Part shown: piece after piece, positions 1 to 58,024 of the stretch
Layout: each line of letters opens with the position of its first letter
Numbering within the stretch: the stretch's first letter is position 1
Assembly: GCA_965217865.1 (NCBI GenBank)
Contig: CBDCJO010000002.1
Coordinates: 4,352,001 to 4,416,000, forward strand
Length of the DNA stretch: 64,000 bases
Direction: 5' to 3'
Source: Candidatus Latescibacterota bacterium
GTDB lineage: Bacteria > Latescibacterota > UBA2968 > SICM01
Program-made: the position numbers and the translations under genes
The notes under the pieces: generated by a model
Told to the model about the DNA's origin: nothing
Database searches by the model: none
The model's input: the letters and a program-made list of their open reading frames with translations, nothing else

Positions 1-1299
1 GGGATCATCGCCGCTCCCCTCCAACGGCTCACGGCTTCTTCCGCAAGGATCAGCGAGGGAAAGCTGGATGAGCGTGTGGATATCCATCCGCATGCACCCC
101 CAATCCATTCACTGCGCCGGAAGGATGAGATGGATGTTCTGGCGGAGACTTTCAACCGGATGGCCGGTACCCTGGAACAGAACATCAAGGACCTTCAGGG
201 ACTCAACAAAGAACTGTTCAAGGAAAAGCAGCTCAAGGAGAACGTGATCCACAGTATTACCCTGGGGATGGTGGTCCTGGATTTGGACAATCGGGTTCTG
301 GAGTGTAACCGGACCTATGCAGAGTGGACAGGGATCGGTCAGGAGGAAGCCCAGGGGCGAAACCTCTTTGAACTTGAGCCGGACCTTTCGGACACAGAGG
401 TCAGAGAGATGGTCGAGAATCTGGCCAGGACCGGCGATCCTGTTGTGAGTCAACGTTTTTCCTATAAACCCCCGGGAAAATCCGAGGCGTGTATCTCGAA
501 CGTGAATGCCTTTCCACTTAAAGCCATAGACGGGAAGGTCTATGGGATCGTTATTATCATTGAGGACGTGACGGAACGGGTAAAGTTGGAACAGCAACTC
601 GCCCAATCGGATAAGCTTGTCTCGGTGGGACAACTCGCGGCGGGAATTGCACACGAGGTGAACAACCCCCTGGGGTCCATCTCCTCGCTGGCTCAAATGC
701 TCCTGGATATGAATGAGGACGAAGAAGCCCGGGAGACCCTTCAGACGATCGTTGGGCAGGTCAACCGAATCTCGGGGATCCTGGGGGATCTTGTGAACTT
801 TTCCAGGCCCCGGCCCGCTGAGAAGGGATCGATGCAAGTGGCAGCGGTCGTCGATACGGTCTCCAGGCTCGCGTCCTTCAACAAAAAGTTTCGAAATATC
901 GAGATTGTTAAAAAGATCGATCCATCGGTCCTTCAGATCACGGCCGATGGAAACCAGATCCAGCAGCTTATACTAAACCTGATCCTTAATGCAGCGGACG
1001 CGATGCCGGAGGGTGGGGAGATCACGATCTCGACCGAATCCATCCAGGAAAGTCAGGACGGCGCCGGCCTTCGCATAAAGGTCGCGGACACCGGACACGG
1101 GATATCGGAGGAAAGCCGTGGCCGCATCTTCGATCCGTTTTTCACTACAAAACCCGCTGGCCATGGCACGGGGTTGGGTCTTTCGGTCTGCTACGGAATC
1201 GTTCAGTCTCACGGCGGAAGGATCCAGGTGGAGAGCGAGGAAGGCCGGGGAACGACATTCGTCATCGATCTGCCGATGGAAATGAAAAATGCAAAATGA
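1..1299 (+). CDS. Sensor histidine kinase (HAMP-PAS-HisKA-HATPase_c), 5' truncated by the window edge
   Basis: Frame 1 is open from base 1 ([31 protein letters not shown] = HAMP). PAS region, H-box [14 protein letters not shown]-box [11 protein letters not shown]-boxes [20 protein letters not shown]. Confidence 0.95.
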
Positions 1300-1312
1300 A
1301 ACGGGGTATTGA

Positions 1313-2479
1313 ATGGCGGGCGAGAAGATCCTGATCGTGGAAGATGAAGACCTGATGCGGTCCATCCTGGAGAAACTCCTCAAAAAAGAAGGGTACGTGG
1401 TATCAACGGCCGCGGACGGTGCGGATGGTCTTGAGATCTTCCGACGCGAGCATCCGGATCTCATCCTCACGGATGTCCAGATGCCGAACATGACCGGACT
1501 GGAGCTCCTGGATAAGGTTCGAAAGCAGGACAGGGACACCCTGGTCATCGTGCTTACGGCTTTTGGATCCATGGAGTCTGCGGTGGAGGCGATGCGAAAA
1601 GGGGCTCACGATTATATCACAAAACCGTTTATCAATGATGACATTCGCATGACGGTCAGCCGTGGCCTGGAGCTCAAGCGAACCCGCGAGGAATTGAAAG
1701 AAACACAGGAACTGGTGGTCCAATCGGAAAAAATGGCTGCCCTCGGGAAACTGGCGGCGGGGATCGTGCACGAGATAAATACCCCCATCGGCTCCATCCA
1801 GAGCAACATTCAATTGCTGGACCGTCTCCTGGAGCGCCTGAAAACCCCGTTAGCAGCCGATCATCCGCCTGGTGAAGGAAATGAAGGGAAGGCTTCTCTC
1901 CGTTTCATCGAGACTGCCGAGGGGCTGAACCGGACCAACCGGGAGGCCTGCAAGAGGATCATCGGCCTGGCGGAAAGCCTGCGAAGCCTTGCGCACCTGG
2001 ATCAGGGGAAGTTGAAACAGGCAGACCTTCACGAGGCGATCGACAGTGTTTTAAACCTTCTTCAGCATGAGCTGGACGATCGGGTTGCTGTGGTCAAAGC
2101 GTACGGAAAGATACCGAATATAGTATGCTACCCGGGTGAGCTTCACCAGATGTTCCTGCACCTGTTGCTCAACGCGATTCAGGCGGTCGACGGACCGGGT
2201 GAGATTGGGGTCAGGACGTTCCAGGTCGATGAGGCCGTCACCGCGGAGATCAGCGATACGGGAAGAGGTATTCCCGACGACATGATCGATCGGGTCTTCG
2301 ATCCAGGATTCACAACCCGGGGGGACAGAGTCCGTCTGGGCATGGGCCTGGGGATCTGTTCACGGATCGCCCACGAACATGGCGGAACCATCAAGATCAA
2401 CAGCCAGCCCGGCGAAGGTTCCAGGGTGACCGTTATTCTCCCGGTGGATGGACCGATGAAGCGGGGAAATGAAAAATGA
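1313..2479 (+). CDS. Hybrid receiver-histidine kinase (REC-HisKA-HATPase_c)
   Basis: N-terminal REC (ILIVEDE..DLILTDVQMP..YITKPF), H-box LAAGIVHEINTP, DTGRGI..FDPGFTT..GMGL. Confidence 0.93.
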   Translation: MAGEKILIVEDEDLMRSILEKLLKKEGYVVSTAADGADGLEIFRREHPDLILTDVQMPNMTGLELLDKVRKQDRDTLVIVLTAFGSMESAVEAMRKGAHDYITKPFINDDIRMTVSRGLELKRTREELKETQELVVQSEKMAALGKLAAGIVHEINTPIGSIQSNIQLLDRLLERLKTPLAADHPPGEGNEGKASLRFIETAEGLNRTNREACKRIIGLAESLRSLAHLDQGKLKQADLHEAIDSVLNLLQHELDDRVAVVKAYGKIPNIVCYPGELHQMFLHLLLNAIQAVDGPGEIGVRTFQVDEAVTAEISDTGRGIPDDMIDRVFDPGFTTRGDRVRLGMGLGICSRIAHEHGGTIKINSQPGEGSRVTVILPVDGPMKRGNEK

Positions 2480-2600
2480 AAATTGCAAATTGAGAAATAA
2501 TCGCACCAGGGGAAAACGGAGTGGGATCTGTGAGTGGTGAATGGCGGGGAGTTCCAGTACGCAAGTTTACAAGATACGTTTCACGAGCTGCGAGGGACTT

Positions 2601-3965
2601 ATGGCGGGTGAGAAGATTCTTATCGTTGAAGACGAAGACCTGATGAGAAATATTTTAACGAGCCTTCTCTCTCAAGAGGGTTATCAAACCTTTGTTGCAA
2701 AAGATGGGGAAGAAGCGCTGGGGATATTTCAGGAGGAGAGGCCCGATCTCATCCTGTCGGACGTCCGGATGCCGGGGATGGACGGGCTTGAACTCCTTCA
2801 GAGCGTTCGCCGGGTGGATCCCGAGGTCATCGTCATCATGATTACCGCCTTCGGGTCGGTGGAGTCTGCGGTGGAGGCGATGCGCAAAGGGGCTTACGAT
2901 TACATTACCAAGCCGTTTATTAATGAAGACATCAAGTTGACCGTTCGAAAAGCGCTGGATCAACTCGAATTGTCCAGGGAAAATCTGAATCTCAAGCAGG
3001 CCTTGAAGGACAAGTACCATTTTGACGGGATTATCGGAAAAAGCGAATCGATGCAGGCGGTGTTTGAATTGATGGAAAAGATCTCCCGGACCACTGCAAA
3101 CATCCTGATTACGGGTGATAGCGGGACGGGAAAGGAGCTCGTCGCCCAGGCGATCCATTATAACTCCGACCGGGGGGAGAGGCCTTTTCTCGTCGTCAAC
3201 TGTGGAGCCCTTGCGGAAAACCTGCTTGAAAGCGAGTTGTTCGGCCACGTAAAGGGAGCGTTCACCGGCGCAACGGGGTCTAAAATGGGCTACTTTCAAC
3301 GATCCGATGGGGGAACGCTCTTTTTAGACGAGATCGGTGAACTCTCCATGGACCTCCAGGTTAAGCTACTGAGGGCCATTCAAGAACGGGAGATCGTACC
3401 GGTCGGCAGCACCGATCCGATCAAGCTCGACGTGAGGATGATCTGCGCGACCAACAAAAATCTTGATAACGAGGTCGCAGAATTCCGATTCCGAGAGGAT
3501 CTTTATTACCGGATCAATGTTGTCCAGATCGAACTGCCGCCATTACGGGGCCGGAGGGAGGATATTCCCCTTCTCATCAGCCATTTCCTTCGAACACACG
3601 CAGAGAAAGCAGGAAAACCGGACACGAGGATTGCAGGGGATGCCGTGAAGTGTCTTATCAATTACGACTGGCCTGGGAATGTCCGGGAATTGGAGAACGT
3701 TGTTGAAAGGGGAGTGATTCTCGCAGAGGGTGGAACCATTACTTCTGATCATCTGCCAAAAAAGGTGAGGGGAACCGCTATCGGGATCGAGGATCTGGGA
3801 GGGGTGGAGATCACGATTGCTGAACTCGAAAAGAGACACGTTCTTAAAGTCCTGGAGAGGGTGGGGGGAGACAAGGGCCGGGCGTCCCGGATCCTCGGTA
3901 TCAATCTGGCAACGCTATATCGGAAATTGAACCGATATGCAGAGGCAAAACAGATTGAAGATTGA
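2601..3965 (+). CDS. Sigma-54-dependent NtrC/AtoC-family response regulator
   Basis: REC domain, Walker A GDSGTGKE, GAFTGA, LFLDEIG, WPGNVREL and a Fis-type HTH (LGINLATLYRKL). Start set at ATG 2601 after GAGGGA, matching the paralog's start. Confidence 0.96.
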   Translation: MAGEKILIVEDEDLMRNILTSLLSQEGYQTFVAKDGEEALGIFQEERPDLILSDVRMPGMDGLELLQSVRRVDPEVIVIMITAFGSVESAVEAMRKGAYDYITKPFINEDIKLTVRKALDQLELSRENLNLKQALKDKYHFDGIIGKSESMQAVFELMEKISRTTANILITGDSGTGKELVAQAIHYNSDRGERPFLVVNCGALAENLLESELFGHVKGAFTGATGSKMGYFQRSDGGTLFLDEIGELSMDLQVKLLRAIQEREIVPVGSTDPIKLDVRMICATNKNLDNEVAEFRFREDLYYRINVVQIELPPLRGRREDIPLLISHFLRTHAEKAGKPDTRIAGDAVKCLINYDWPGNVRELENVVERGVILAEGGTITSDHLPKKVRGTAIGIEDLGGVEITIAELEKRHVLKVLERVGGDKGRASRILGINLATLYRKLNRYAEAKQIED

Positions 3966-3990
3966 CGTCTAACATCAAAGGAGGAGAAAC

Positions 3991-4611
3991 TTGAAGGTAC
4001 TTATTTTTGGATCAACGGGCAGCATCGGTCGCGAGCTTGTCAAGCAAGCGCTTGACCAGGGACACACGGTCACGGCGTTTGCACGCGATCCCTCGAAGCT
4101 CGATATCCAGCACACCAACCTACAGGTCGTTCAGGGCGATGTAATGGATCTCGCATCGGTGGAGAAAGCGGTGCAAGACCAGGAGGCGGTGCTGTGTGCG
4201 CTCGGGGAAGGAAGGAAGGGTACGGTACGGTCAGGGGGGACGCGGAATATGATTCGCGCAATGGAGAAGGCGGGCGTCCGACGTTTTGACTCTCTGTCGA
4301 CACTCGGTGTCGGTGATAGCTGGGAGATGCTTCCTCTCAAATACAAAATCTTTTTCCGCACCCTACTACGAAAAGCTTTCGCAGATCACGTGGCTCAAGA
4401 AAATCTCATCAAACAGAGTCAGTTGGACTGGACTATCGTCCGTCCGGGCGCATACACAAACGGTGAGCGCACAGGTGAATACCGGCACGGCTTCCCGGTT
4501 GCCGATAAGACGATCAAAGCCAAAATCTCGCGCCCCGATGTCGCCGACTTCATGTTGATGCAACTGGCTGACAATACATACCTTCGGAAGACCCCTGGGG
4601 TGTCGTACTGA
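3991..4611 (+). CDS. NAD(P)H-binding atypical SDR / flavin reductase (BVR-B-like)
   Basis: Rossmann motif FGSTGSIG, WTIVRPG and ISRPDVADFM. TTG start after AGGAGG. Confidence 0.9.
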   Translation: MKVLIFGSTGSIGRELVKQALDQGHTVTAFARDPSKLDIQHTNLQVVQGDVMDLASVEKAVQDQEAVLCALGEGRKGTVRSGGTRNMIRAMEKAGVRRFDSLSTLGVGDSWEMLPLKYKIFFRTLLRKAFADHVAQENLIKQSQLDWTIVRPGAYTNGERTGEYRHGFPVADKTIKAKISRPDVADFMLMQLADNTYLRKTPGVSY

Positions 4612-4702
4612 ATGAAATGCTTCAACACGCTACGACGCAGTCCGACAAGTTGTGGCAGCTAACCCCAGCGGTGCGTCCCGCGCTCAAGAGATTGGAGGAA
4701 TC

Positions 4703-5197
4703 ATGGGAATCTTTCAGATTATATTGATCTTGGCTACATTTCTTTGTTCCCTGGTGGCAGGCTTCCTGTTTGCTTTTGCCGTAGTGGCGATGCCGGGCAT
4801 AGGAAGCTTAAATGACCGGGAGTTTATCCAAGCTTTTCAGGTGATGGATCGCGTTATCCAGAATAATCAACCGATATTTCTGTTCGTCTGGGTCGGTTCA
4901 GTTGTGGCTTTGATTGCTTCGGTTGTGCTTGGCATCGGGCAATTGGATGGAGCTGGGCGTCTGCTCATATTCTTCGCCGCACTCGCCTATCTTCTCGGCG
5001 TCCAATTGCCGACCGTCACTATTAATATACCGCTGAATAACGAACTACAAACTCTGGATGTCGACGCTATGAATGAAACAACTCAAAAAGCAGCTCGTCA
5101 TGACTTCGAACCGCGTTGGAACCGATGGAACTCGATCAGGGCGGCCTTTGCCACCCTGTCATCTGCCCTGTTAATAATTCTACTATTCAGACTTTGA
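4703..5197 (+). CDS. DUF1772 / anthrone-oxygenase-like membrane protein
   Basis: Four hydrophobic helices, NIPLNNEL and FEPRWNRWNSIR motifs. ATG 4703 after GGAGG. Confidence 0.85.
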   Translation: MGIFQIILILATFLCSLVAGFLFAFAVVAMPGIGSLNDREFIQAFQVMDRVIQNNQPIFLFVWVGSVVALIASVVLGIGQLDGAGRLLIFFAALAYLLGVQLPTVTINIPLNNELQTLDVDAMNETTQKAARHDFEPRWNRWNSIRAAFATLSSALLIILLFRL

Positions 5198-5285
5198 AAG
5201 GCGTGGCAGTGGATCGCAATAAGCCTAACTAGGTGCTCTTTTTATTACGGTCAATTTCTACCTAACAAATAAGGAGACATATGAG

Positions 5286-5492
5286 ATGGAAAAATATCCG
5301 GTATCTTTAAGTATCGATTACTCAGACAAGTCTAATAGGGTAACAGTATTATTCAGGTTATTTCTTGCCATTCCAATTTTAATTATACTGGATCTACTAA
5401 CATCTTCTAGCTATGAAAACGAACAAGCAGCTAACGCTTACGCATTATTATTGACAACAGATGAATTTCCCCCATTTAGGCTCAGCGAATAA
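5286..5492 (+). pseudogene. Internally deleted DUF4389-family membrane protein remnant
   Basis: The family-like N-terminus (YPVSLSIDY..RVTVLFRLFLAIP) is joined directly to the family-like C-terminus (AYALLLTTDEFPPFRL) in only 68 aa. AAGGAG RBS; AT-rich. Confidence 0.65.
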
Positions 5493-5711
5493 TAAATGTA
5501 CGTCTGAAGTGAATAACAAAAATAAGGGGCTGACCAAAAACGAATGGTACAATGTTGCAAACTAAGGATTTGAAGAGAGAACTCGAAACCACTACGAATC
5601 AGGAAGAATCGCTTTGATTATAGATTGTCTATCATCGACCACGGCGAAACTCTTGAACAAACCTCGGTTCCCGATTGTCGATAGGATGCATGTGGGTTCA
5701 GGAGGTGCCGG

Positions 5712-8700
5712 ATGAAACGCGCTGTGGCCTGGTTTGCGGAGAACAGCGTCGCGGCCAACCTCCTGATGATCCTCATCCTGGCGGGTGGTCTACTGATGGT
5801 CCCGAGTCTCAAGATGGAACTGTTTCCCGAGCTCTCTGCGGACCTCATCACCATCTCCGTAGTCTATCCCGGAGCGGCTCCGGAGGAGGTCGAAGAGGCG
5901 GTCTGCGTGAGAATCGAGGAGGAGATCCAGGGTCTCGAGGGGATCAAGCGCGTAAAATCCACGGCCTCGGAAAACGTGGGGGCCATCATGGTCGAGCTCC
6001 TCACCGGGATGGACACCCGGAAACTTTTAGACGATATAAAGTCTCGCATCGATGCCATCGATACCTTCCCGGATGAGGTCGAAAAGCCGGTTGTCCAGGA
6101 ACTGGTCTTCCGTCGCCAGGTTATCAACGTAGCTGTATCCGGCGAGGCGGGTGAGGCCACACTAAAAGTTTTGGGGGAACAGGTGCGGGACGAGATCGCG
6201 GCCCTCCCCGGGATTACCCAGGTTGAGCTGGCCAACGCCCGTCCATACGAGATTTCCGTCGAGGTCTCGGAGGAGGCCTTGAGGCGGTACGGCCTCACTT
6301 TCGAAGAGGTTTCCCGGGCGGTGCGCCTCTCCTCCCTGGACCTTCCCGGCGGGTCGATCAGGACGGAGGGGGGCGAGATCCTCTTGCGCACCAAGGGGCA
6401 GGCCTATCGAGGACCAGACTTCGAAGGTCTGGCCCTGCGCACCCGCCCGGACGGGACCCATCTGAGGCTGGGTGATGTGGCGACGGTGGTAGACGGTTTC
6501 GCGGAGACGGATCAGGTCGCACGGTTCGACGGCAGGCCATCGGTCCTGATCCAGGTTTTCCAGGTGGGGGACCAGAACGCACTTGAGATCGCCGAACACG
6601 TCAAGGCCTACATCCCCGACGCCCAGATGCGGATGCCGGAAGGGATCAAGCTCACCGTATGGGCGGATTTCTCAAGGATCCTCAGTGGCCGACTCGACCT
6701 CATGCTCAGAAACGGTCGAACGGGTTTTATCCTGGTCTTTATCGCCCTGACCCTGTTTTTACGTCTGCGTCTGGCCTTCTGGGTCGCCCTGGGGATCCCG
6801 ATCTCTTTCCTCGGGGCCATATGGTTGATGCCCGGTATGGATGCCTCGATCAATCTGATTTCACTATTCGGTTTCATCGTGGTCCTGGGGATCGTCGTTG
6901 ACGACGCGATCATCGTGGGTGAAAATATCTACAGGCACTTTCAGCAGGGAAAGAGAGGTCTGCTTGCCGCAATCGCAGGAGCGCATGAAGTGACCGTACC
7001 CGTGATATTTGCGGTCCTGACTTCGATAGCCGCGTTCAGTCCGCTCCTGACAATCCCCGGGACGATGGGGAAGTTCATGAAGATTATTCCACAAATCGTC
7101 ATCGCCACTCTGATCTTTTCCCTCGTCGAATCGTTGCTGATCCTGCCCGCCCATCTCGCACACTCCAGGATGAACGGGGAAAAGACCTCTTCAAGGGGTA
7201 TCGGAGCCCAGTGGAACCGCTTCCAGGACTGGTTCTCTGAAGGACTGAAACGTTTTACGGTTCAGATCTACCGCCCGTTCCTGGAATTAGCCCTCCGGTG
7301 GCGTTACCTCACCGTTGCGATCGGCGTCTCGATCCTCCTTTTCACGGTGGGCTTGATCGGGGGGGGCCGGATTAAATTTCTCTATTTTCCGGACGTCGAT
7401 GCGGACAATGTCGTGGCCCTTTTGACGATGCCGCAGGGTACCCCCGCCGATGTCACCGCTCAGGCCGTACGTCGCCTGGAGGAGTCGGTTGTGAGACTCC
7501 GGGAAGAAATTGACGGTGGAGAAAGGGAGAAGGTATTCCGCCACGTCCTGACATCGGTCGGGGAGCAGCCTTTCCGCACCGCTCAGAACCAGAATAGCGG
7601 AAGGATCGCAGCATTTGTGGGGGCACATCTGGGGGAAGTCAATGTCGAGCTGGTCCCCTCAGAGGCGAGGGAAATCGGCAGCACGGAGATTGGCCGGCGG
7701 TGGCGTGAAATGACAGGTCCAATTCCTGAAGTCGCGGAGCTGACTTTCACGGCCTCGCTCCACCCCACGGGCGAAGCCGTGAATATCCAGCTTTCCGGCC
7801 CGGATTACCAGGAATTACGGCAGGTTGTGGACAAGCTGAAGGCCCGGCTGGGAGAATACCCGGGGGTCATCGACATCGCCGACTCCTTCAGGTCGGGCAA
7901 ACAGGAGGTCAAGCTTTCCCTTTCCCGTGGGGCCGAGATGCTGGGGCTAACGCTCTCCGACCTCGCCAGGCAAGTCAGACAGGCCTTTTACGGCGAGGAA
8001 GCTCAGCGCATTCAGAGGGGCCGGGATGATATCAAGGTGATGGTCAGATATCCGCCGGAGGAGCGGGCGTCCCTGGGAAATCTTGAAGAGATGCGTGTTC
8101 GAACACCTGACGGAGGAGAGATTCCTTTCTCCGTTGCCGCGAAGGCTGAGCTTGGACGCGGGTATGCGTCGATTCAACGGGCTGATCGAAGACGGATTAT
8201 CAACGTCACGGCCGATGTGGATAAGAGCCGGACCAACGCCAACGCCAACGCCGTGATAAATGAAATTACCGCTTCGCATCTTCCGGAGATCCTGGCGGAC
8301 CATCCCCGGGTCAGCTACTCCCTGGAAGGCGAGCAGCGTGAACAGCAGGAAACCCTGGGGGAGCTTTATAAGAGTTTTGGTCTCGCTCTGTTGATGATCT
8401 ATGCGTTGCTGGCAGTCCCGTTCCGGTCCTATCTCCAACCGGCCATTGTCATGTCCGCCATCCCCTTCGGGTTGGTCGGGGCCGTCTGGGGACACATCAT
8501 CATGGGGATGGATCTCACCATTCTCTCCATGTTCGGGCTGGTTGCGCTCACGGGCGTTGTGGTCAACGATAGCCTTGTGATGGTCGATTTTATTAACCGA
8601 AACCGCGCCCAGGGCAATCCGATACACGAGGCCATACGAGAAGCCGGTGTCGTCCGGTTTCGGCCTATTCTGTTGACGTCTTTAACCACCTTCGCCAGCC

Positions 8701-8903
8701 TTACCCCTCTCATGCTGGAGAAGAGCCTCCAGGCACAGTTTCTCATCCCCATGGCGGTTTCCCTGGGCTTCGGGGTACTCTTCTCCACGTTTATCACCCT
8801 GTTTCTTATTCCGGTGGGTTATATTATCCTTGAAGATGCAAAGGGCCTCGGGGCAAAGTTGATCGGGAGGGAAAACGTGGAGCCCCTGGATCGGGCAGCG
8901 TGA
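5712..8903 (+). CDS. RND efflux transporter permease (AcrB/AcrD/AcrF family)
   Basis: 1063 aa with GIVVDDAIIVGEN, RFRPILLTSLTT and two large periplasmic loops. AGGAGG RBS. Confidence 0.96.
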   Translation: MKRAVAWFAENSVAANLLMILILAGGLLMVPSLKMELFPELSADLITISVVYPGAAPEEVEEAVCVRIEEEIQGLEGIKRVKSTASENVGAIMVELLTGMDTRKLLDDIKSRIDAIDTFPDEVEKPVVQELVFRRQVINVAVSGEAGEATLKVLGEQVRDEIAALPGITQVELANARPYEISVEVSEEALRRYGLTFEEVSRAVRLSSLDLPGGSIRTEGGEILLRTKGQAYRGPDFEGLALRTRPDGTHLRLGDVATVVDGFAETDQVARFDGRPSVLIQVFQVGDQNALEIAEHVKAYIPDAQMRMPEGIKLTVWADFSRILSGRLDLMLRNGRTGFILVFIALTLFLRLRLAFWVALGIPISFLGAIWLMPGMDASINLISLFGFIVVLGIVVDDAIIVGENIYRHFQQGKRGLLAAIAGAHEVTVPVIFAVLTSIAAFSPLLTIPGTMGKFMKIIPQIVIATLIFSLVESLLILPAHLAHSRMNGEKTSSRGIGAQWNRFQDWFSEGLKRFTVQIYRPFLELALRWRYLTVAIGVSILLFTVGLIGGGRIKFLYFPDVDADNVVALLTMPQGTPADVTAQAVRRLEESVVRLREEIDGGEREKVFRHVLTSVGEQPFRTAQNQNSGRIAAFVGAHLGEVNVELVPSEAREIGSTEIGRRWREMTGPIPEVAELTFTASLHPTGEAVNIQLSGPDYQELRQVVDKLKARLGEYPGVIDIADSFRSGKQEVKLSLSRGAEMLGLTLSDLARQVRQAFYGEEAQRIQRGRDDIKVMVRYPPEERASLGNLEEMRVRTPDGGEIPFSVAAKAELGRGYASIQRADRRRIINVTADVDKSRTNANANAVINEITASHLPEILADHPRVSYSLEGEQREQQETLGELYKSFGLALLMIYALLAVPFRSYLQPAIVMSAIPFGLVGAVWGHIIMGMDLTILSMFGLVALTGVVVNDSLVMVDFINRNRAQGNPIHEAIREAGVVRFRPILLTSLTTFASLTPLMLEKSLQAQFLIPMAVSLGFGVLFSTFITLFLIPVGYIILEDAKGLGAKLIGRENVEPLDRAA

Positions 8904-9117
8904 AGATCAGGGATCAAGGGAAATTGACGATTGAAGATTGGAAAAAGGCAGTAGCAGATGGCAGTGGCAGGAAAATCAAAGGTGGGCCAAAGGAAATTGA
9001 AGATTGAAGATCGAATATTCAAGAATATTGAAGCGAGATCAATAAGACGACAAGAAAGTCATGGGTTTTTCAATATTAAATTTTCCGATATTCAATATTA
9101 TATTCAATGAAGGTTTT

Positions 9118-9726
9118 ATGTCCATCCGTACGACAGATGAAATCTGGGAAGCGTTCAGCCAGGGTCTGAAGGGCTTTATCGCGAATCGGATTTCGAATTC
9201 CGATAACGCTGAGGACATTTTACAAGATGTCTTCTTGAAGATCCATAACCATATTCAAGACCTCAAACAGGGGGACAGATTGGAGTCCTGGATCTATCAG
9301 ATCACACGGAATGCGGTAACGGATTATTATCGACGGAAGCATAGAGTCGCTGATTCCAACGTTGAGGTGCTCACCGAGTCGGGATTTACGGGAGGTTCAG
9401 AGTCCCCTCAGTCGGACGGAATTCTCGAATGTCTTAAGCCTATGGTGCTTCAGATGTCGGAGAAATACAGGGAGGCCATTCTGTTGACGGAGTATGATTC
9501 GCTCCCTCAGAATGTCCTTGCAGAAAGGCTGGGGATATCCCTATCCGGAGCCAAGACGAGGGTGCAAAGGGGCAGAAAAATATTGAAGGATATGCTATTA
9601 CGCTGTTGTCACTTCGAATTCGACCGCCTGGGAAATATTCTGGATTACCAGGTAAAAGACGAAGGTTGTGGATTTTGTTCCGCGGATCCGGATAGAACGT
9701 CGACCATCAACTCGATCCCCGAGTAA
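9118..9726 (+). CDS. sigZ: ECF sigma factor, SigZ type
   Basis: AEDILQDVFLKI, WIYQITRN, LSGAKTRVQRGR and the SigZ-typical CCHFEFDRLG tail. Confidence 0.85.
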   Translation: MSIRTTDEIWEAFSQGLKGFIANRISNSDNAEDILQDVFLKIHNHIQDLKQGDRLESWIYQITRNAVTDYYRRKHRVADSNVEVLTESGFTGGSESPQSDGILECLKPMVLQMSEKYREAILLTEYDSLPQNVLAERLGISLSGAKTRVQRGRKILKDMLLRCCHFEFDRLGNILDYQVKDEGCGFCSADPDRTSTINSIPE

Positions 9727-9820
9727 AACGAATGGAATCCTAAGAAGAGTTACGAGCTACGGCTCTTCTGTGCTTCACACTTCACGAGATACGCTTCACA
9801 GATTCTTTAAGGAGGGATTC

Positions 9821-10663
9821 ATGATGCAAAAGTGGATCGGCGGTCTCATTCTGGTGATCTGTATCCTCGGGGTCTGTTCGGATACAGATGCGAGGGATGT
9901 TAGGGACATCGTAAAAATCGCCAACGATGTTGTTGTTGAAGAAGGGGAGCATGTCGGCGACGCCGTGGCCGTCGGGGGGAACGTAACGGTAAAGGGTACG
10001 GTGGAAGGCGATGCCGTAGCGGTCGGGGGCTCGGTTACGCTCGAGTCCCGTGCGATCGTGGAGGGGGATGTTGTCTCGATCGGAGGTAAGATTCATAAAG
10101 CTCCGGGTGCGAAAATTCACAACGATATGGTCGAAGTCGATGCGCCGGGCATCTCTTCATTTAAAAATGCCATGCCTGAATGGCACTGGCGAAGTTGGTT
10201 GCAGGGGTTTAGAATTGTGACATTTATCGGATTTATCGCCCTGGCTTTGTTGATCGTGGCCATCATGCCAAGGCAAATCGGCTTGATTTCGAATGCGATT
10301 GAATCAGACACCCTGAAGACGGTACTCTGGGGCCTTCTGGGAATGGCCTTGATAGTCCCGGGAGCGCTTTTGCTCACCATGTCGATCGTGGGGATTCCGC
10401 TCGTTCCAGTGGAATTAATCCTGGTCGTGTGCGCGGCCATTACCGGATATATTGCGATCGCTCAGCTCATCGGCAAAAAAATGGCCATCGCCCTCAAAAG
10501 GACGGATCTGCCCATTTTCTGGGAAACCTTTTGGGGAGTCTTTATGCTGGGAATCATCGGATTTGTCCCGGTCCTGGGCTGGTTGGTAAAGGGGATCGCA
10601 TCCCTGATCGGATTCGGGGCAGTGATTTTGACGCTGGTCCGTATTAAAGCGGCTGACCTGTAA
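9821..10663 (+). CDS. Membrane protein with N-terminal bactofilin-like beta-helix repeats and C-terminal TM bundle
   Basis: Signal peptide, repeated GDAVAVGG(N/S)VT units, then about 4-5 TM helices. ATG 9821 after AAGGAGG. Confidence 0.75.
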   Translation: MMQKWIGGLILVICILGVCSDTDARDVRDIVKIANDVVVEEGEHVGDAVAVGGNVTVKGTVEGDAVAVGGSVTLESRAIVEGDVVSIGGKIHKAPGAKIHNDMVEVDAPGISSFKNAMPEWHWRSWLQGFRIVTFIGFIALALLIVAIMPRQIGLISNAIESDTLKTVLWGLLGMALIVPGALLLTMSIVGIPLVPVELILVVCAAITGYIAIAQLIGKKMAIALKRTDLPIFWETFWGVFMLGIIGFVPVLGWLVKGIASLIGFGAVILTLVRIKAADL

Positions 10664-10803
10664 GGTCGGGGGGGGGATAGGAAATTGAAGATTGAAGATT
10701 GAAAGACCTGAGCTCGGTTCCTACCTCTCTGTGGCCTATCTGATTCCAGGGGCGCTTGAGGAACATCGATTCCAGACAGTGGGCCTCTCTCCGCATGGAG
10801 GAT

Positions 10804-12321
10804 TCAGGGGCGTTCCGCCCACCGGGCAACGTTCTGCAAGACGATCTTCGGGTTGGGAAAAACGTCCCGCAGCAGCTTGTGGTAGAAGCACTCCTCCGGG
10901 GAGCGCAGGTTGTCCTCCTGAAACTTATCCGCGTAGGCCGCGAGGTCCATCCCCTCTGTGGCCCGGGCCAGGGCATTCTCCAGGAGCTGCACGGTTCCGC
11001 TGCCCTCATCGAATTGCTCCTTGTCCCGCCACAGTATCTCGGGGGGGAGTAGATCTTCACAGGCCTGGCGCAGTATCCACTTCTCTACGGTCTGACCGTC
11101 TTCCTTTTCGTAGAGCTTGAGCTGTGGTGGAATAGTCTGGGCCAACTCAACCATGGCCAGGTCGAGAAAAGGGACACGCCCTTCAAGCCCGTGTGCCATC
11201 GTGAGGCGGTCGACGCGCTGCAGGTTGACGTTGTGTAGCGCGGTAACCGAACGGCGAAGCTCTATGTGCAGGGCATCAAGGTCAGAAATCCCACGGCAAT
11301 ATGTGTACCCGGCGAAAAGCTCGTCAGCCCCTTCCCCGGTCAGAATGACCTTCACGTGTTCCGCGGCAAGCCGGGAGCAGAAGTAACAGGGGATGGCGCT
11401 CCGGACCAGATCCTGATCAAAGGACTCAAGGTGGAATATGATCTCAGGAAGCTTTTCCAGGACCTCTTCAGCTGCGAACACGTATTCGTGATGGACGGAC
11501 CCGATATGCCGGGCTACGTGTCGGGCTGCATCCAGGTCACGTGAGCCCTCTATCCCCACGGAGAAGGTGTGAAGCCTGTCCATGTGCTTCCGGGCGATGG
11601 CAGCGATGATGCTGCTGTCGAGGCCACCCGACAGGAACGCGCCAAGGGGCACATCGCTCATAAGCCTCTTCACTACGGCCTCTTCGAGTGTCTCCCTTAG
11701 AGTCCTCCGAAGCCTCTCAACCGGCAAATCCCGTGGCTTGAGCTCAGGAACCACGTAGTACGGTTTGAATCCTGTGTCCGAGATATAGCACGTACCCGGA
11801 GGGAATTCATTCACGTCATCGGCTTTGTCAACCAGCGCCTTGATTTCTGATGCAAACCAAATCACCTGATCGGGCGTGTTCTCGCCACGAATGCCGTAGT
11901 ACAGCGGCTTAATCCCGATCGGATCGCGTGCAAGAAAGAGGGATTCGCCGCCTGAGATGGCGAAGGCGAACATGCCGTCGAGTAACCTGACGGAGGAAGG
12001 GCCTTGATCTTCAAAAAGATGCAGTATGGCCTCCGAATCATTCCCGGTCCTGAATTCGTGATTGTCCCGGAGGTCAGCTCGAAGCTTCGGGAAGTTGTAG
12101 ATCTCCCCATTGGCCACAATGCTCGCCGAACGATCCTCGTTAAATATCGGCTGATCTCCACCCTCCGGGTCCATAATGGACAGTCGGCGATGCCCCAGAA
12201 CGCCCATAGACGCTTCCACGTGCATCCCCGCCATATCCGGCCCCCGGTGGGCCAGTTTGTGCATCATATCCCTCACCGTTTCTTTTTCAGCCCTTCCCCA
12301 GATCCCTGCGATACCGCACAT
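10804..12321 (-). CDS. asnB: Asparagine synthase (glutamine-hydrolysing) family amidotransferase
   Basis: MCGI N-terminal nucleophile, HRGPD, HRRLSI, NGEIYN, LSGGLDSS, GEGADELFAGY. Confidence 0.92.
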   Translation of the reverse strand: MCGIAGIWGRAEKETVRDMMHKLAHRGPDMAGMHVEASMGVLGHRRLSIMDPEGGDQPIFNEDRSASIVANGEIYNFPKLRADLRDNHEFRTGNDSEAILHLFEDQGPSSVRLLDGMFAFAISGGESLFLARDPIGIKPLYYGIRGENTPDQVIWFASEIKALVDKADDVNEFPPGTCYISDTGFKPYYVVPELKPRDLPVERLRRTLRETLEEAVVKRLMSDVPLGAFLSGGLDSSIIAAIARKHMDRLHTFSVGIEGSRDLDAARHVARHIGSVHHEYVFAAEEVLEKLPEIIFHLESFDQDLVRSAIPCYFCSRLAAEHVKVILTGEGADELFAGYTYCRGISDLDALHIELRRSVTALHNVNLQRVDRLTMAHGLEGRVPFLDLAMVELAQTIPPQLKLYEKEDGQTVEKWILRQACEDLLPPEILWRDKEQFDEGSGTVQLLENALARATEGMDLAAYADKFQEDNLRSPEECFYHKLLRDVFPNPKIVLQNVARWAERP

Positions 12322-12390
12322 GTAGAATCACTCCGCTTTCAGTGAGATTCAATGACTATTATGCCAGTCCTGGGCTTCCCACCTCCCCGG

Positions 12391-12786
12391 TTAACCTCGC
12401 CCACCCAGGATTCCGCTCTCCTTCAGAAACCGTTGCGCGACACTGGCGGGTGACCGCTTTTGCTCATCTACCTCGTGATTGAGACGCTGCATGGTCACGT
12501 TATCGATCGCACCGGCCAGCCGACCAAGCGCCTCAAGAAGCTCCGGATGTGCCATTAGTACGGCCATGCGCGCTACAGGAGCAGCGTAGTAGGGAGGGAA
12601 AAACCCTCTGTCATCCTCCAGGGGCTCGAGGTCGTATGCCGGTATGCGACCGTCCGTTGAAAAGGCGCAGCTCAGGTCGACTTCGTCCTGAGCAAGCGCC
12701 TTGTACATCAGCCCCGGGTCCAGGTCCCGAACGGCAAAGGTCGCCCCGCCGTCGAAAGATTTGGATAGGTCGCGCAGAACAATCAC
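12391..12786 (-). pseudogene. Deletion chimera: first ~23 aa of an osmoprotectant ABC ATPase fused to the C-terminus of a glycine-betaine-type binding protein (OpuAC/OsmX-like)
   Basis: MIVLRDLSKSFDGGATFAVRDLD (ATPase start) runs directly into PGLMYKAL..FSTDGRI..LEDDRGFFPPY..MQRLNHEVD (binding-protein C-lobe). No Walker motifs and no permease. Confidence 0.8.
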
Positions 12787-19377: not shown

Positions 19378-19429
19378 GATGTCTAATCCGTGGTTTGTGA
19401 TTCGTGGTCCGTGACAATTTTCAGGTTAC

Positions 19430-22276: not shown

Positions 22277-22375
22277 GGAATCCGCCCCTCACCCGGCCAC
22301 ACAGGAATACAGGATATAGAATATTGAATACAGAATCCGGGTTTAAGCGGTTTGATTTTGATCTTCTCCTGTATT

Positions 22376-24107: not shown

Positions 24108-24207
24108 CCCACCCGGTTCGGGATTTTAGGAACTGAAGAGCGTGAAGCGGAGGAGCCGTATCAATAATCTTGGGCTCTTGCGAGATACGATTCACGAGAT
24201 ACGGCCT

Positions 24208-41717: not shown

Positions 41718-41828
41718 AAAAACCTCAGGGATCAGTAATCAGGGGTCAGGTGTCGGAAGAGCTGGTATCAGATACCGAGGATCAAGAGGTGGGGACCACC
41801 ACCTCCGACACCTGATACCGACCCCGAC

Positions 41829-43247: not shown

Positions 43248-43449
43248 GGTTTTCTCCGATGGCAAACCCGCGAATCGTGAAACGTAAATCGAATCCCGAA
43301 AAAGGCAATATCTCGTATCCCGTTAAGATAGCGAAGCTTGAGCAACGAAAAGGATATCACCCCCCCCGTGTCTGGGAAAGACCGCCGCCTTACTGGGGAT
43401 TCAAAAAAAGGGTGGTGAATATCATTCAAATGGCACTTCACGTCCCAGT

Positions 43450-48901: not shown

Positions 48902-50427
48902 CAGCCTGTTGAAAAAGTGCATTTATGCCAAGATGACTGTTGTCTTTCCTTGTGGTTTGGTCCTATGATATATCAGGTTCAAACTGAGAAGGGAGGACGA
49001 GCAAATGGCAATGGGAAAACGAGGACGACAGAGACAGGAAAACCTGTTCATCGCATCGAACACTTTGGTGAAATCTCCGGGTCATCCGTTCTACGAGAAG
49101 CTGAATCAGGTATTGGGGGCGAACGGCTTCGACGAGTTCGTCGAGGGGCTTTGCCAGCGGTATTACGCTCCTCATATGGGTCGCAAGGGCATTCCGCCCG
49201 GGGTTTATTTTCGGATGCTTTTGATTGGGTATTTCGAGGGACTTGATTCGGAACGTGGGATCGAATGGCGTGTATCTGACTCGCTGACGTTGCGCCGGTT
49301 TTTGGGGTATGCCCTTGACGAACAGACCCCGGATCATTCCAGCCTGTCTCGCATCCGGCATCGGCTTCCCTTGGAAGTTCACGAAGCGGTTTTCAAGTGG
49401 ATCCTGAGGGTCTTGTGCAAAGCGGGTCTGGTGAAGGGGAAGACGTTGGGCGTGGATGCTACGACACTGGAGGCCAACGCCGCGATGCGCAGCATTGTAC
49501 GCCGTGACACGGGTGAAGGCTACCAGGCATTCCTTGAGAATCTGGCCAAGGCCTCGGGCATTGAAACGCCTACCCGCGAGGACTTGTCCAAGATCGATAA
49601 GAAGCGACCGAAGAAGGGATCGAACCAGGACTGGGAGCACCCGCACGACCCGGATGCCAAGATCGCTAAGATGAAGGACGGTCGCACGCACATGGCGCAC
49701 AAGGTGGAGCACGCGGTGGATCTGGACACCAATGCCATTGTGGCAGTGGCGTTGTCGGGAGCAGATGAAGGAGATACCGAGTCGTTGCCCTGGACGCTGC
49801 TCGAGGCGCAGCTCAATCTCAAGCAGGTCGCGAAGGACGAAAAAGCTGCCAAACGTTTGCACAGACAGCGTATACGGGAGGTGGTTGCGGACAAAGGATA
49901 TCATAGCAACGATGTATTGACCAGTCTGAAGCAAGGCGGCATCCGGAGTTACATTTCAGAACCGGATCGGGGACGCCGCAAGTGGAACGGCCGACGAGAT
50001 GAGCAGGCCGCGGTATATGCGAATCGACGCCGGATCAAGGGAGATCGCGGCAAGGCCTTGCGCCGAAGTCGTGCAGAACGGGTGGAAAGAACCATCGCTC
50101 ACACATATGATACCGGTGGCATGCGCAGGTTGCACTTGAGAGACCGCGGCAATATCCTCAAGCGTTTGCTGATCCACATCGGGGGCTGCAACCTGGCTCT
50201 GCTCATGCGCAAAGTGATGGGCGTAGGTACTCCGAAGGCCCTCCAGGACCTGGCCAAGGCCTTGCAGCGTCTACTGCTCGTCCTACAATCACGTTTGCTG
50301 CCCTCGGTCACCTTTTTAACCTCTTATCAGCGTCTCCTGCTCAATCTCCTTACCTTGATTTATCTGACCCGCACTCCAGGCGTCTTTTCCGTTTATGTGC
50401 GTTGAAAGGTAGTTCTTCAACGGGCTG
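48902..50427 (+). mobile_element. Insertion sequence (IS1182/IS5-like), 1526 bp
   Basis: Terminal IRs CAGCCTGTTGAAAAAGT and CAGCCCGTTGAAGAACT (14/17 match). CTAG duplicated at 48898-48901 and 50428-50431. Confidence 0.92.
49005..50405 (+). CDS. DDE transposase (DUF772 + DDE_Tnp_1-like)
   Basis: GHPFY, SERGIEW, TPDHSSLSRIR, VDAT, HDPDA, VADKGY, RVER. Confidence 0.93.
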   Translation: MAMGKRGRQRQENLFIASNTLVKSPGHPFYEKLNQVLGANGFDEFVEGLCQRYYAPHMGRKGIPPGVYFRMLLIGYFEGLDSERGIEWRVSDSLTLRRFLGYALDEQTPDHSSLSRIRHRLPLEVHEAVFKWILRVLCKAGLVKGKTLGVDATTLEANAAMRSIVRRDTGEGYQAFLENLAKASGIETPTREDLSKIDKKRPKKGSNQDWEHPHDPDAKIAKMKDGRTHMAHKVEHAVDLDTNAIVAVALSGADEGDTESLPWTLLEAQLNLKQVAKDEKAAKRLHRQRIREVVADKGYHSNDVLTSLKQGGIRSYISEPDRGRRKWNGRRDEQAAVYANRRRIKGDRGKALRRSRAERVERTIAHTYDTGGMRRLHLRDRGNILKRLLIHIGGCNLALLMRKVMGVGTPKALQDLAKALQRLLLVLQSRLLPSVTFLTSYQRLLLNLLTLIYLTRTPGVFSVYVR

Positions 50428-50458
50428 CTAGCCCTCGGGGATCGGGATCAGAGAGTTT

Positions 50459-54132: not shown

Positions 54133-54182
54133 GCACACGGGTTTGAGAAGGTCAGATCAGTAAGGGATCAAAGGAAAACGAC

Positions 54183-55506: not shown

Positions 55507-55657
55507 TCCGGGGTGTATGCTGCCAGAGGACTCTGAATCTTTCCAATATCTCGGGTTTGTAACCCTATCAGTAGAAGTGGCAGTAGCAGGAAAAAGGAAA
55601 ACGATCTGATTGGTTCGGTTCAGGTGCCAAAAATCGGATATTCGGAGGAAAGTCGTT

Positions 55658-57354
55658 ATGTCACATCTATGCATCGCGATAGTCTGTGTGCTCAGCCTTC
55701 AGCATCCAGGAAATCTGGCCGCGGTTGAGGGCACGGATAATATCTCGACCTTTGGGGGAACTGGAGATCCGGGTTTTTCAGGGGATGGGGGGCCGGTCAA
55801 TGAGGCCGAGTTGACGAGTCCAAGTGACCTTTTCCTGGATGAAAAGGGGGTCCTCTACATCGTCGGTGACGGGCGGATCCGCCGGGTGGGCCTGGACGGG
55901 ATCATCACGACTATCGCGGGTACGGGCGAGAGAGGTTTCTCAGGGGACGGGGGACTCGCTACAGACGCCACCCTAAGGCCCTCCGATGTGGCCGTGGATT
56001 CAAAAGGGAACATATACATCGCCGACCCAGGCAATGACCGCATCCGAGTTGTGACAGTCAGGATCATCGATACCCTTGCGGGTTCAGGATTCGAGGAAAT
56101 GGCCTATTCGGGGGACGGGGGTCCGGCGAACCAGGCCGAGCTGAACCGACCCTCCGGCGTGGCCGTGGATGCGGACGGCATAAACGTCTATATCGCCGAC
56201 AACCTAAATAACGTTATCCGTCGCGTGGGCCCGGACGGGATCCTCGCGCTAACGGTCACATCCCTGGCGTTCGACACGACCGGAGTCGGGGGGAGTTCCG
56301 AACAGACCCTGGAGGTCTCGAACATCGGGACCGGATCCCTGACCCTCACCGGGTTCACGTTCAGCGGTGCGGGAAGAAGGGATTACCAGGGGCAGGAGAC
56401 GCTGCCCACGATCGACGCCGGGGGCATCGAGACCGTCACCGTGATTTTCACCCCAGCAGAGAAGGGGAACGTTCGGCCGTCCTGTTTGTGGAATCCGATG
56501 CCGGGCACAAAGGGATCGACGTAACAGGGTTCTCCGTGGAGGGTGGTCCGGAGATCAGCCTGTCGGTTACCACCCTGGCGTTGGAGACCATCAAGGTGGG
56601 TGAGAACGCCGTTCAGGGAACGATCACGATCACGAACCCGGGCGTCTCGGATCTGTCCGTCACCGGGATCACCCTGGAGGGGGCCGATGTTTCGGAATTC
56701 GACGTTTCCCCCACCGCGGCCACGATCGCACCCGGGGGATCGGAGACCATAACGATTACATTCGACCCTGCCTCCATCGGGAATAAGTCAATCACCGTTC
56801 ACGTGGATCACAACGCTGGGGATCAACTCACCGTCGACCTGACCGCTGTCGCAGAAGGCGGACCGGTCCTGGGGCTGCCGTCCGATGTCGTGTCGTTCGA
56901 CGGCGTGCAGGCGGAGACAATTGATCAGGGATCTTTCACGATCACCAACCCGGGCACCGAAGACCTCTCCATCACCGCGATCATTGTGGAAGGGACGCAC
57001 GCTTCCGAGTACGAGGTCTCGACGACTCAGGTCACGATCGCTTCGGGAGGGTCCGAGACGATAACGGTGATATTTTCTCCGACATCTCCGGGGACGAAGT
57101 CGGCCAGCCTCCAGATCGATCACAATGCGGGGGATCCCACGACTGTTCGCCTATCCGGGGTCGTTTATGCCGCCGGGACATCTCCGGATTTCGACGGGAC
57201 AGGCAAAGTGGATCTGGAGGATTTCTTCCTGTTTGCAGCTGCATTCAGTCAGGAGCCGACAGGTGATAACGTCCGTTTCGACCTGGACGGCAACAACAAG
57301 ATCGATTTTGACGACTTCTTCCTCTTCGCGGGGGCGTTCGGGAAGGAGTTATAA
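55658..57354 (+). CDS. Secreted NHL-repeat / ASH-Ig (choice-of-anchor D-like) protein with a C-terminal paired EF-hand/dockerin-like module; frameshift near 56467
   Basis: Signal peptide, GFSGDGG.A..A.L..P..VAVD repeats, three I.N.G..DL Ig units and DFDGTGKVDLEDFFLFA..DLDGNNKIDFDDFFLFAGAFG. Adding one G to the run at 56464-56467 joins the two ORFs. Confidence 0.8.
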
Positions 57355-58024
57355 GTCGGAGGTCAGAGGTCGGAGGTCAGGGGTCAGGAAAAGCCAGGGG
57401 CCAGAGGTCGGGGGTCGGGGAAAAGCAGTAGCAGGTGGCAGGGGCCAGGGAAAAGAAAAAACTGTGAAACGTGAAACGGAAGTCAAGGATCGGATCACAT
57501 CCATCCAGCGTTTGACGTTTCACGGCTCTTCTTTCCGAGTCACGAGCCGCGATGATTCCCTCCAGATTTGCACAGGCTAGCCGCGGTCGGGGTGGAGCCC
57601 CCTTTAACAACGAGGTGTTTGAAGGATGATTTCGATTCGAAAAAATTGGCGATTGATTGGCTTGATAATTTTCTTGATGGTTATGTTCGCCATCCTTATA
57701 CCTCTCTTGGCTTTCGGATAGGGGTGCGCACGTCTTCGACAACATCGTCTCGGGTGCGGCGCTACCGAACGATCGCTCAGAATCAATGTGTTACCACACA
57801 GGGTCGAGCTTCAAACTCAACTCGGCCTGTGCCACGTGGCTTGACAAGCCTCAGAAACCTACAAGGCTGAATCTGTCCGCCGAAAGCGCTACTGAGGATC
57901 TTTAGGGTCAAGAAATTATAGAATTTGACGAAAATTAGAGATAAGGATCCGGAATATGTTCGGGCCCGGTCAGCAGGAACCGATATTTCGTTTTAAGAAT
58001 TGGCCATAGACTGGAGAAATCTGC

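Follow-up and report, generated by a model that had tools for sequence, protein, structure and literature searches.

The window, by which we mean the whole stretch of 64,000 nucleotides that was analyzed from the genome of a Candidatus Latescibacterota bacterium (here G000), contains short tandem repeats at its gene junctions, 11 out of 47 of which carry a repeat block at our threshold. The blocks fall into families, several of which recur within the window as forward arms, inward-facing arm pairs, or stacks of different units (Table 1). All of the repeat sites cited in a preliminary description of this DNA are present as described. The sites at 3951-3967, 10680-10705, and 50435-50448 lie beyond the list given there. 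The arrays at 9773-9793 and 24180-24203 are below the block threshold and are nevertheless genuine common repeats, the 13-mer that they share occurring 13 times in the genome.

Table 1. Repeat arms, arm pairs, and composite elements of the window
Feature	Position	Strand	Context
Family B forward arm (unit like ATGCAAA)	1278-1301	+	provides stop codon of histidine-kinase gene 76-1299
Family B forward arm	2464-2493	+	overlaps stop of gene 1313-2479
Family E (ATTGAAG) forward arm, two units	3951-3967	+	over stop of sigma-54 regulator gene
Family E forward arm	8921-8944	+	first scored block of stack after AcrB-family gene (stop 8903)
Hexamer block (GCAGTA/GCAGTG units)	8945-8972	+	type flanking four-helix-bundle gene at G000:C2:1734300
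Segment of hexamer block, linker, and one E arm	8939-9014	+	between two E repeats; missing in two related strains
Gene-less "Ee" element	8992-9112	+	forward E arm and reverse arm around a conserved non-repeat spacer; 60 genome copies
Reverse-type arm	9773-9793	+	upstream of start at 9821; contains 13-mer (9781-9793) common to 24191-24203
Solo family E forward arm	10680-10705	+	17 nt past stop at 10663
Family H arm	19390-19414	+	5' end toward start of minus-strand gene for an amidohydrolase (gene end 19377)
Family C inward arm pair	22305-22385	.	junction of two convergent genes; predicted fold z -2.1
Two-unit array	24180-24203	+	includes 13-mer also at 9781-9793
Family G inward arm pair	41725-41828	.	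perfect 12-bp core 41746-41757/41804-41815; predicted fold z -2.9
Family J/H arm	43269-43291	+	toward start of minus-strand gene
Family H block, two units	50435-50448	+	between transposase gene and end of flavoprotein (DFP) gene
Forward-arm stack: G, G, hexamer block	57355-57455	+	begins first base after stop 57354; fold z -0.2, unstable
Inward pair of family J arms (GTGAAAC type)	57457-57530	.	far end of 57355 stack; fold z -3.7

The intergenic DNA of the window holds 17 period-7 arrays, compared to a mean of 2.2 (maximum, 8) in 200 dinucleotide shuffles, and the whole genome holds 781, compared to 23 to 30 in three shuffles, confirming that the periodicity exceeds that of composition-matched sequence. 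Intergenic autocorrelation has its maxima at 7, 14, and 21. The repeats had been described as having a 7/8-nt period, of which the 7 stands and the 8 does not: period-8 arrays are not enriched in the window (2 versus 2.0 in shuffles), show a mild excess genome-wide (74 versus 27 to 35), and have a heptamer locus no more than 40 nt away in 5 of 77 cases, so that period 8 was ruled out as a member of the family. Given that it is the period-6 arrays that adjoin heptamer loci (80 of 137 within 40 nt), we regard the family as one of 6/7-nt repeats. Using repeat units learned from this genome itself, we found blocks at ∼845 genome loci, amounting to ∼55 kb of family-specific blocks in seven heptamer groups and one hexamer group.

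The block families keep fixed non-repeat flanks, and their orientation is tied to transcription. Forward-only loci begin within 15 nt of a stop codon in 140 of 203 cases, against 56 expected. Stacks of several families are found at 69 of 235 pure forward loci versus 14 of 116 pure reverse loci (p = 0.0003), and hairpins are preceded by other forward blocks in 20 cases and followed by other reverse blocks in 2. It is thus the forward arms that stack, and any complete hairpin sits at the far end of its stack. Symmetrical nesting, with an outer family closing both sides, was rejected, with 1 doubtful case among 845 loci. Inward arm pairs occur at 112 of the 845 loci (outward pairs at 5). In 89 of these 112 pairs, both innermost arms come from one family (null mean, 35; maximum, 49). 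The layout of forward and reverse-complement arms, previously described as frequent, is therefore real but confined to a minority of loci.

Families E and H form multicopy, non-coding elements with inverted ends. The E element of ∼100 bp, represented in the window at 8992-9112, has 60 genome copies that share a common spacer (median identity, 77%) and have a marked polarity at co-directional junctions (44 versus 5), and the H element has 26 copies. Neither spacer contains a detectable trace of a gene: against profiles of the C terminus and N terminus of four-helix-bundle proteins, the E and H spacers scored like shuffles, with 9 of 10 positive controls reaching 13 to 27 bits, and we rejected the view that these spacers are leftover ends of such a gene. 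By nhmmer, none of 96 four-helix-bundle loci was a filled E or H element, and metagenome contigs scanned for exact 20-nt words gave 5 matches, mostly chance and none with a four-helix-bundle gene.

The repeats differ between close copies of the same junction. Seven paralogous gene ends with 91 to 94% identity to the window gene at 56488-57354 carry different stacks or none, the differences affecting both the near and the far end of a stack. Given this, and since block age does not vary with rank and shows no gradient along the stacks, these data reveal no order of arrival. Contigs of two related strains (X8 and X9) lack 8939-9014, a segment bounded on either side by a copy of the E repeat. Among 40 rows of orthologous junctions compared with the sister genus, none had arrays in both genomes at our threshold, 9 had them in the relative only, and 2 in G000 only; the 96 pairs of syntenic duplicate junctions within the assembly were mostly uninformative, several deriving from split gene calls. 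The arrays had been proposed to be "empty" traces of a mobile or recombining module. The dispersed copies with common spacers, the differing paralogue stacks, and the strain polymorphism at 8939-9014 support such a module, but nothing found here shows that a site of the window is "empty": among the orthologous junctions compared, none held the gene in one genome and arms alone in another, and the E and H spacers hold no detectable remnant.

A connection to the flanks of four-helix-bundle genes, which the preliminary description had drawn, is borne out by all four such genes (PF05635/TIGR02436) in G000, each of which carries repeat arms. Their flanks are B, J, D, or hexamer arrays, types found genome-wide, of which B, J, and the hexamer are also present in the window; the GTGAAAC-type J pair at 57457-57530, for example, is of the type found upstream of the four-helix-bundle gene at G000:C2:3991568. 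All four loci lie between or at the ends of protein-coding genes and none inside the 23S rRNA gene. The window contains no PF05635/TIGR02436 open reading frame, in agreement with the earlier reading, and its sites are likewise not in the 23S rRNA gene. One of the four genes, in the C2:3991568 region, is plainly intact, with a protein matching XCC0516 (PDB 2GSC; E = 1.7e-26), two are frameshifted in the assembly, each frameshift falling at a single-base run, and one has no ATG. None of the four is cognate to the abundant families E, G, H, or C.

The association extends to other genomes. A period-7 arm is present at 76 of 96 sampled four-helix-bundle loci, compared to 3, 9, 13, and 13 loci for periods 5, 6, 8, and 9, respectively, and upstream and downstream flanks are complementary at 66 of the 96 loci versus 22 of 300 mismatched pairs. 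Among nearest protein neighbors of less than 80% identity, 12 of 74 have arm units within one mismatch of each other (null mean, 2.0; maximum, 8), in a statistic in which kin are not independent. Four relatives have a full cassette inside a DNA methylase gene that is uninterrupted in G000, and a full cassette also lies between two genes that in G000 are adjacent and armless. The GxxExxY partner (TIGR04256) has no match in G000. Array density does not scale with the number of four-helix-bundle genes over 15 relatives sampled at ∼80 kb each; the relative G002, whose genome is 91% complete, contradicts such scaling, with 19 arrays per 75 kb and no PF05635 match.

Gene ends in this genome thus carry 6/7-nt blocks that stack one way, vary between strains, and are of the repeat types that also surround four-helix-bundle genes. 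Because the same repeats flank the four four-helix-bundle genes of the genome, the arrays are likely gene-less offspring of a cassette. Our preferred reading, to which we assign a probability of about 0.55, is that they are non-autonomous derivatives of a small mobile four-helix-bundle cassette that were copied to the 3' ends of genes. The cassette would consist of a forward arm, the four-helix-bundle gene, and a reverse arm. A copy would be pasted at a gene end via short purine-rich matches and without target duplication, and the insertion may be tolerated because three successive 7-nt units, if the unit has a stop triplet, suffice to close every reading frame. The interior and reverse arm of the resident would be swapped by a subsequent arrival or exchange that keeps its forward arm, producing a stack, and slippage could afterwards lengthen or trim the units. 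The four-helix-bundle protein, a relative of Avd, would putatively act in trans on its own arm type, with a strand-transfer enzyme.

Alternatively, the arrays could be simple repeats that propagate themselves, being born and growing by polymerase slippage and spreading by gene conversion or template switching, with the four-helix-bundle genes as passengers. Family H, with its perfect arrays of 10 to 39 units, does show slippage, and PMC4679880 cites polymerase slippage as an origin for heptamer repeats in bacteria. The bounding of the 8939-9014 difference by two E repeat copies, the arrays of G002 in a genome with no gene detected, and the spacers without a gene remnant fit as well. Slippage alone, however, does not account for common non-repeat spacers and flanks, for matched inward arms and polarity to transcription, or for units that track protein similarity, and we consider this explanation possible but clearly less probable than the derivation from a cassette. 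The strict orientation relative to genes would also fit repeats that are selected RNA regulatory parts, namely, hairpins serving as RNase III sites or stabilizers, pyrimidine-rich translation enhancers before starts, and purine-rich protein-binding sites after stops. A translational role has been proposed for TAACTGA repeats (PMC4679880) and the stem of the Coxiella intervening sequence (IVS) is cut by RNase III (PMC4990558). Predicted folds beat shuffles at three of the four paired window sites (z from -2.1 to -3.7); the pair at 8990-9115 and the three solo arms or stacks that were folded did no better than shuffles. RNA structure, the alternative in the preliminary description, hence suits the paired minority and neither the solo arms, which make up most loci, nor 8990-9115. 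Moreover, the sites are conserved neither with the sister genus nor between paralogues, and the same position is served by many unit types, so that we hold a regulatory origin to be improbable.

Least likely is that the arrays belong to the classical MITEs or the REP/REPIN-like elements and owe their movement to a resident insertion sequence (IS) or HUH (Y1) transposase, even though the E and H elements lack a gene, are short and multicopy, and have inverted arms and the genome is rich in IS, with 19 Y1_Tnp matches. Blocks lie near 4 of 18 Y1 loci versus 172 of 1,000 random genes, and most copies in the large IS families are free of blocks within 250 nt downstream (71 of 78, 41 of 43, and 32 of 33 copies). 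Single arms prevail at most loci, and there is no sign of target-site duplication, as a shared flank word of at least 5 was found in 4 of 25 Ee elements (null, 3.3) and 8 of 61 hairpins (null, 7.1), with the caveat that element ends in this test are repeat-block limits, which short duplications could escape. Neighbor gene lists show no reverse transcriptase beside the four four-helix-bundle genes of G000, and of three RVT_1 matches elsewhere in the genome, one has one block within 2.5 kb. Linkage of the blocks to a reverse transcriptase or Y1 transposase was therefore rejected for G000, and this analysis identified no enzyme mobilizing the repeats. Taking the cassette reading further, one could speculate, with rather low odds, about a transposase-free mobile class in which an Avd-like four-helix-bundle pentamer binds RNA at the heptamer arms of its own cassette and, by means of a reverse transcriptase or repair enzyme borrowed from the host, pastes arm-bearing copies where mRNAs have their stop codons. 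Each stack would then record, layer upon layer, which cassette families arrived, and heptamer repeats so far unexplained in many bacteria would be the footprints of this class.

Intergenic heptamer tandem repeats are known from cyanobacteria as STRR, and MITEs and the RAYT-associated REP, REPIN, and BIME sequences are short, non-coding, multicopy, extragenic elements with inverted arms and mosaic composites. The repeats described here share all of these features with the latter, but they differ from MITE and REP/REPIN elements in being tandem repeats with mostly single arms, in showing neither target-site duplications nor, in the surveys above, a linked transposase, and in their strong anchoring to stop codons. 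Like STRR and TAACTGA, they are above-chance intergenic tandem 7-nt units oriented to genes, a likeness of layout. According to PMC4679880, the TAACTGA repeats of Beggiatoaceae are intergenic, gene-oriented 7-nt repeats of 2 to 6 units with rare long arrays, one orientation of which holds stop codons in all three frames. The paper deals with a single unit and one inverted case, whereas the repeats of this genome comprise several units, arranged as inverted pairs, stacks, and composites, and a search of its text gave no match to "four helix," "four-helix," "helix bundle," "IVS," or "23S." In the IVS of 23S rRNA that carries an open reading frame (S23p/PF05635/TIGR02436), a four-helix-bundle gene likewise lies within inverted arms, and in Coxiella burnetii variable-number tandem heptamers are reported upstream of the S23p frame (PMC4990558). 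In contrast to the IVS, the arms described here are at protein-coding gene ends, mostly gene-less, in hundreds of copies, and of several stacked unit types. Arm pairs that could form a complementary terminal stem like that of the IVS occur at 112 of 845 loci, with predicted folding at three of four paired window sites, and solo arms make up most loci. PF05635 and Avd have been described as homologous (PMC10053308); unlike in a diversity-generating retroelement, no reverse transcriptase adjoins the four four-helix-bundle genes of G000. The literature searched, from which subscription papers were mostly absent, yielded no description of genome-wide heptamer-armed four-helix-bundle cassettes. What this genome contributes is the polar stacking and the strain-level turnover.

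The intergenic heptamer repeats of bacteria and the very large four-helix-bundle (IVS/S23p) family have both so far been unexplained, and this genome joins them, adding a testable structure in which the blocks are specific to families, follow a polar grammar, turn over fast, and differ between strains. The predictions are arm-specific binding for each protein clade and fresh insertions at stop codons. If the cassette reading is true, these repeats would represent a class of mobile DNA that moves without a recognized transposase, rewrites protein C termini, and is able to enter genes.

The heptamer array phenomenon in the genome under study (G000; 6.43 Mb in 2 contigs, C1 and C2, 96% complete, 9% contaminated) is real. 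Intergenic autocorrelation has maxima at 7, 14 and 21, and 781 intergenic period-7 arrays were found, versus 23-30 in three dinucleotide shuffles. The window (C2:4352001-4416000), with an ordinary gene content (two-component systems, AcrB, ValS, UvrA, DnaB, FliM and others), holds 17 such arrays versus a shuffle mean of 2.2 and a maximum of 8 (200 shuffles). A preliminary description had proposed a 7/8-nt period, of which the 7 stands and the 8 does not (2 period-8 arrays in the window versus 2.0); near heptamer loci lie 5 of 77 period-8 arrays versus 80 of 137 period-6 arrays. Every site cited there was recovered in the window, plus a few additional ones. Genes (6,677 in G000) were called with a simple dicodon model that misses AT-rich small genes and can misplace starts, so that start-codon distances are rough.

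Training on G000 yielded eight matrices that were informative for heptamers; merging two of them left seven groups (B, C, D, E, G, H and J); two low-information matrices gave zero blocks, and stack counts cover the seven heptamer groups, hexamer blocks being excluded. The blocks group into 845 loci comprising 54,720 bases. The layout of forward and reverse-complement arms described earlier holds as inward pairs at 112 of the 130 loci with both orientations (5 outward, 13 other) but not at most of the 845. The innermost arms belong to the same family in 89 of these 112 (null mean, 35; maximum, 49), and in 39 informative cases the arm match was innermost in 28 versus outermost in 6. Non-repeat flanks are family-specific, and joints are typically short and purine-rich. 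The E element has 60 copies, whose spacer is conserved (pairwise identity: median, 77%; maximum, 96%), and a polarity of 44 versus 5 at co-directional junctions; the H element has 26 copies, a polarity of 12 versus 7, and perfect arrays reaching about 39 units. Besides the two perfect H arrays tabulated below, G000 has 13 others over 70 nt; these arrays of 10-39 units mostly occupy a single arm of the H element. BLAST with the E element gave 23 matches in G000, only short arm matches in the two genomes of the same family as G000, and 0 matches in 38 other genomes. IS-like genes found between paired arms mark the spacers as landing sites. In one relative, G002, a family B hairpin is nested within an inverted 9-nt-period arm pair at one junction (locus L177).

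Coordinates and descriptions of features in G000
Feature	Coordinates	Description
E element	window 8992-9112	Forward E arm, conserved spacer, reverse arm; gene-less
Perfect H arrays, 10-39 units	C1:31016-31362; C2:4645268-4645676	May reflect recent expansion or an assembly effect
IS-like genes within arm pairs	C2:3037473, 4037866, 4583531, 5252612; C1:54229	Presumably of the ISL3, IS1595 and IS200 families, judging by sequence
AT-richer segment	window 3960-5270	Begins at an E doublet (3951-3967); by appearance, its genes are of NAD(P)-binding-like and small membrane types; long X8/X9 contigs break off and restart around it; possibly strain-variable
Repeated segment	C2:9706-20062; C2:2493777-2528950	Gene pairs 92-98% identical, suggesting a duplicated or second-strain segment, consistent with the 9% contamination
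FliM-like gene, 2 copies	window 58025-59035; C2:4705732	93-95% identity
PF05598 transposase gene	window 49005-50405	G000 has large multi-copy IS families
NHL-repeat and Ig-like ORFs	window 55688-57354	37-nt overlap, different frames; some paralogues consist of one longer ORF; probably a multi-copy surface-protein family member with a frameshift
DNA methylase homologue	C1:631080-633704	Uninterrupted
Four-helix-bundle locus 1		J arm upstream; IS-like gene downstream
Four-helix-bundle locus 2		D hairpins on both sides
Four-helix-bundle locus 3		Hexamer arms on both sides
Four-helix-bundle locus 4		B arms on both sides

The arrays have a marked polarity. Purine-rich forward arms begin at the stop codon: 140 of 203 forward-only loci lie within 15 nt of it versus 56 expected under uniform placement, compared with 11 of 105 reverse-only loci (26 expected on the same assumption). 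The first block contains the stop codon in 139 genes, and several units contain a stop triplet, which, as read from the sequence, 7-nt steps carry through all frames; stop triplets of TAACTGA repeats likewise cover all frames (part of PMC4679880). Selection may explain some of this anchoring, because, in tight operons, blocks would do least harm at this position. Multi-family stacks are biased towards forward, making up 69 of 235 pure forward cases versus 14 of 116 pure reverse ones (P = 0.0003). Of the 65 hairpin loci, 38 have no further blocks; other forward blocks precede the hairpin at 20, other reverse blocks follow it at 2, and 5 are mixed. Blocks occupy 425 of 2,429 junctions between co-directional genes, 87 of 388 between convergent ones and 51 of 421 between divergent ones.

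The arrays are copied as units and turn over. Seven paralogous gene ends, 91-94% identical to the window gene at 56488-57354, carry different stacks, one having none. Blocks occur in 22 of 104 paralogue groups, where many pairs diverge directly past the shared stop; in some the far part is common and the difference lies near the stop, in others the opposite holds. Among sequencing-run contigs, those of X1 and X2 show zero differences to window 1000-12500, of which they may be the source. One 14-kb contig of X9 (about 2-3% diverged) omits window 8939-9014, two letters standing at the joint, which X8 (about 3-4% diverged) shares. The missing stretch is flanked by two E repeats, so that either a gain in G000 or a loss in the relatives would account for it; a gain would be simpler with X8 as the outgroup. 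Of 40 rows of sister-genus orthologous junctions (one a duplicate; arrays counted at threshold), 29 lack arrays and 0 have them in both genomes; 9 have arrays in the relative alone, including one at which G000 carries a sub-threshold pair of a different family, and 2 have them in G000 alone.

Four-helix-bundle genes (PF05635/TIGR02436) occur in 60 of 168 phylum genomes. G000 has 4 loci (5 matches); of the genes, one is intact, two carry frameshifts in the assembly and one has no ATG. The link to such genes, drawn in the preliminary description, was borne out, with arms at all 4 G000 loci and a period-7 arm at 76 of 96 sampled loci (4 from G000, the remainder selected from other genomes; one without a profile hit; two duplicates excluded, as was a weak hit next to a DGR-like gene). 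Flanks are complementary at 66 of the 96 versus 22 of 300 mismatched pairs, and the arm unit follows protein similarity (units within one mismatch for 12 of 74 nearest neighbours below 80% identity; null mean, 2.0; maximum, 8; related proteins not being independent). Other genomes have units within one mismatch of E at 3 loci, of G at 3, of C at 1 and of H at 1. Full cassettes insert: one lies within a DNA methylase gene in G001, G035, G012 and G008 (L016, L017, L021 and L020), and in G038 one lies between two genes whose G000 counterparts are adjacent and armless. The methylase frame stays open across the cassette in the first three (about 130 overprinted codons) and shifts within the repeat arm in G008, a possible phase switch. 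In L122 and L124 (G088 and G090), tandem modules of the gene's 3' tail plus arm stand before and after the four-helix-bundle gene.

No pair of orthologous junctions, filled in one genome and arm-only in another, was found; no coding remnant turned up in the E and H spacers, and G000 has no cognate gene for any of its four most common armed families. Per about 80 kb, nine genomes that carry the gene have 9, 2, 11, 2, 3, 22, 2, 5 and 0 period-7 arrays, and six that do not have 1, 2, 0, 2, 1 and 19 (G000, 13). Neither target duplication at the elements, linkage of arrays to RT or Y1, nor an age gradient along stacks was found. Predicted folding favours hairpins at window 22300-22390, 41720-41830 and 57455-57535, but neither at 8990-9115 (z = -0.5) nor at any of three solo arms or stacks. 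That the arrays are self-spreading slippage repeats, with four-helix-bundle genes as passengers, seems unlikely to us. We give still less credence to selected RNA regulators, and classical MITE/REP elements are very improbable.

The arrays behave like an IVS-type cassette or a MITE but qualify as neither in the tests applied. The Coxiella IVS, cleaved by RNase III, has heptamer repeats upstream of an S23p ORF (part of PMC4990558), and PF05635 and Avd are described as homologous (part of PMC10053308). TAACTGA repeats are oriented, and the portion of PMC4679880 used here gives no mechanism and no mention of the four-helix-bundle family. The literature searches turned up no paper on a genome-wide heptamer-armed four-helix-bundle cassette. 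We favour, at a probability of roughly 55%, the reading that the arrays are non-autonomous derivatives of such a cassette that were copied to 3' gene ends, with block-wise reshuffling: they would descend from the cassette, the interior of a resident copy would be replaced, and the four-helix-bundle protein would act in trans.
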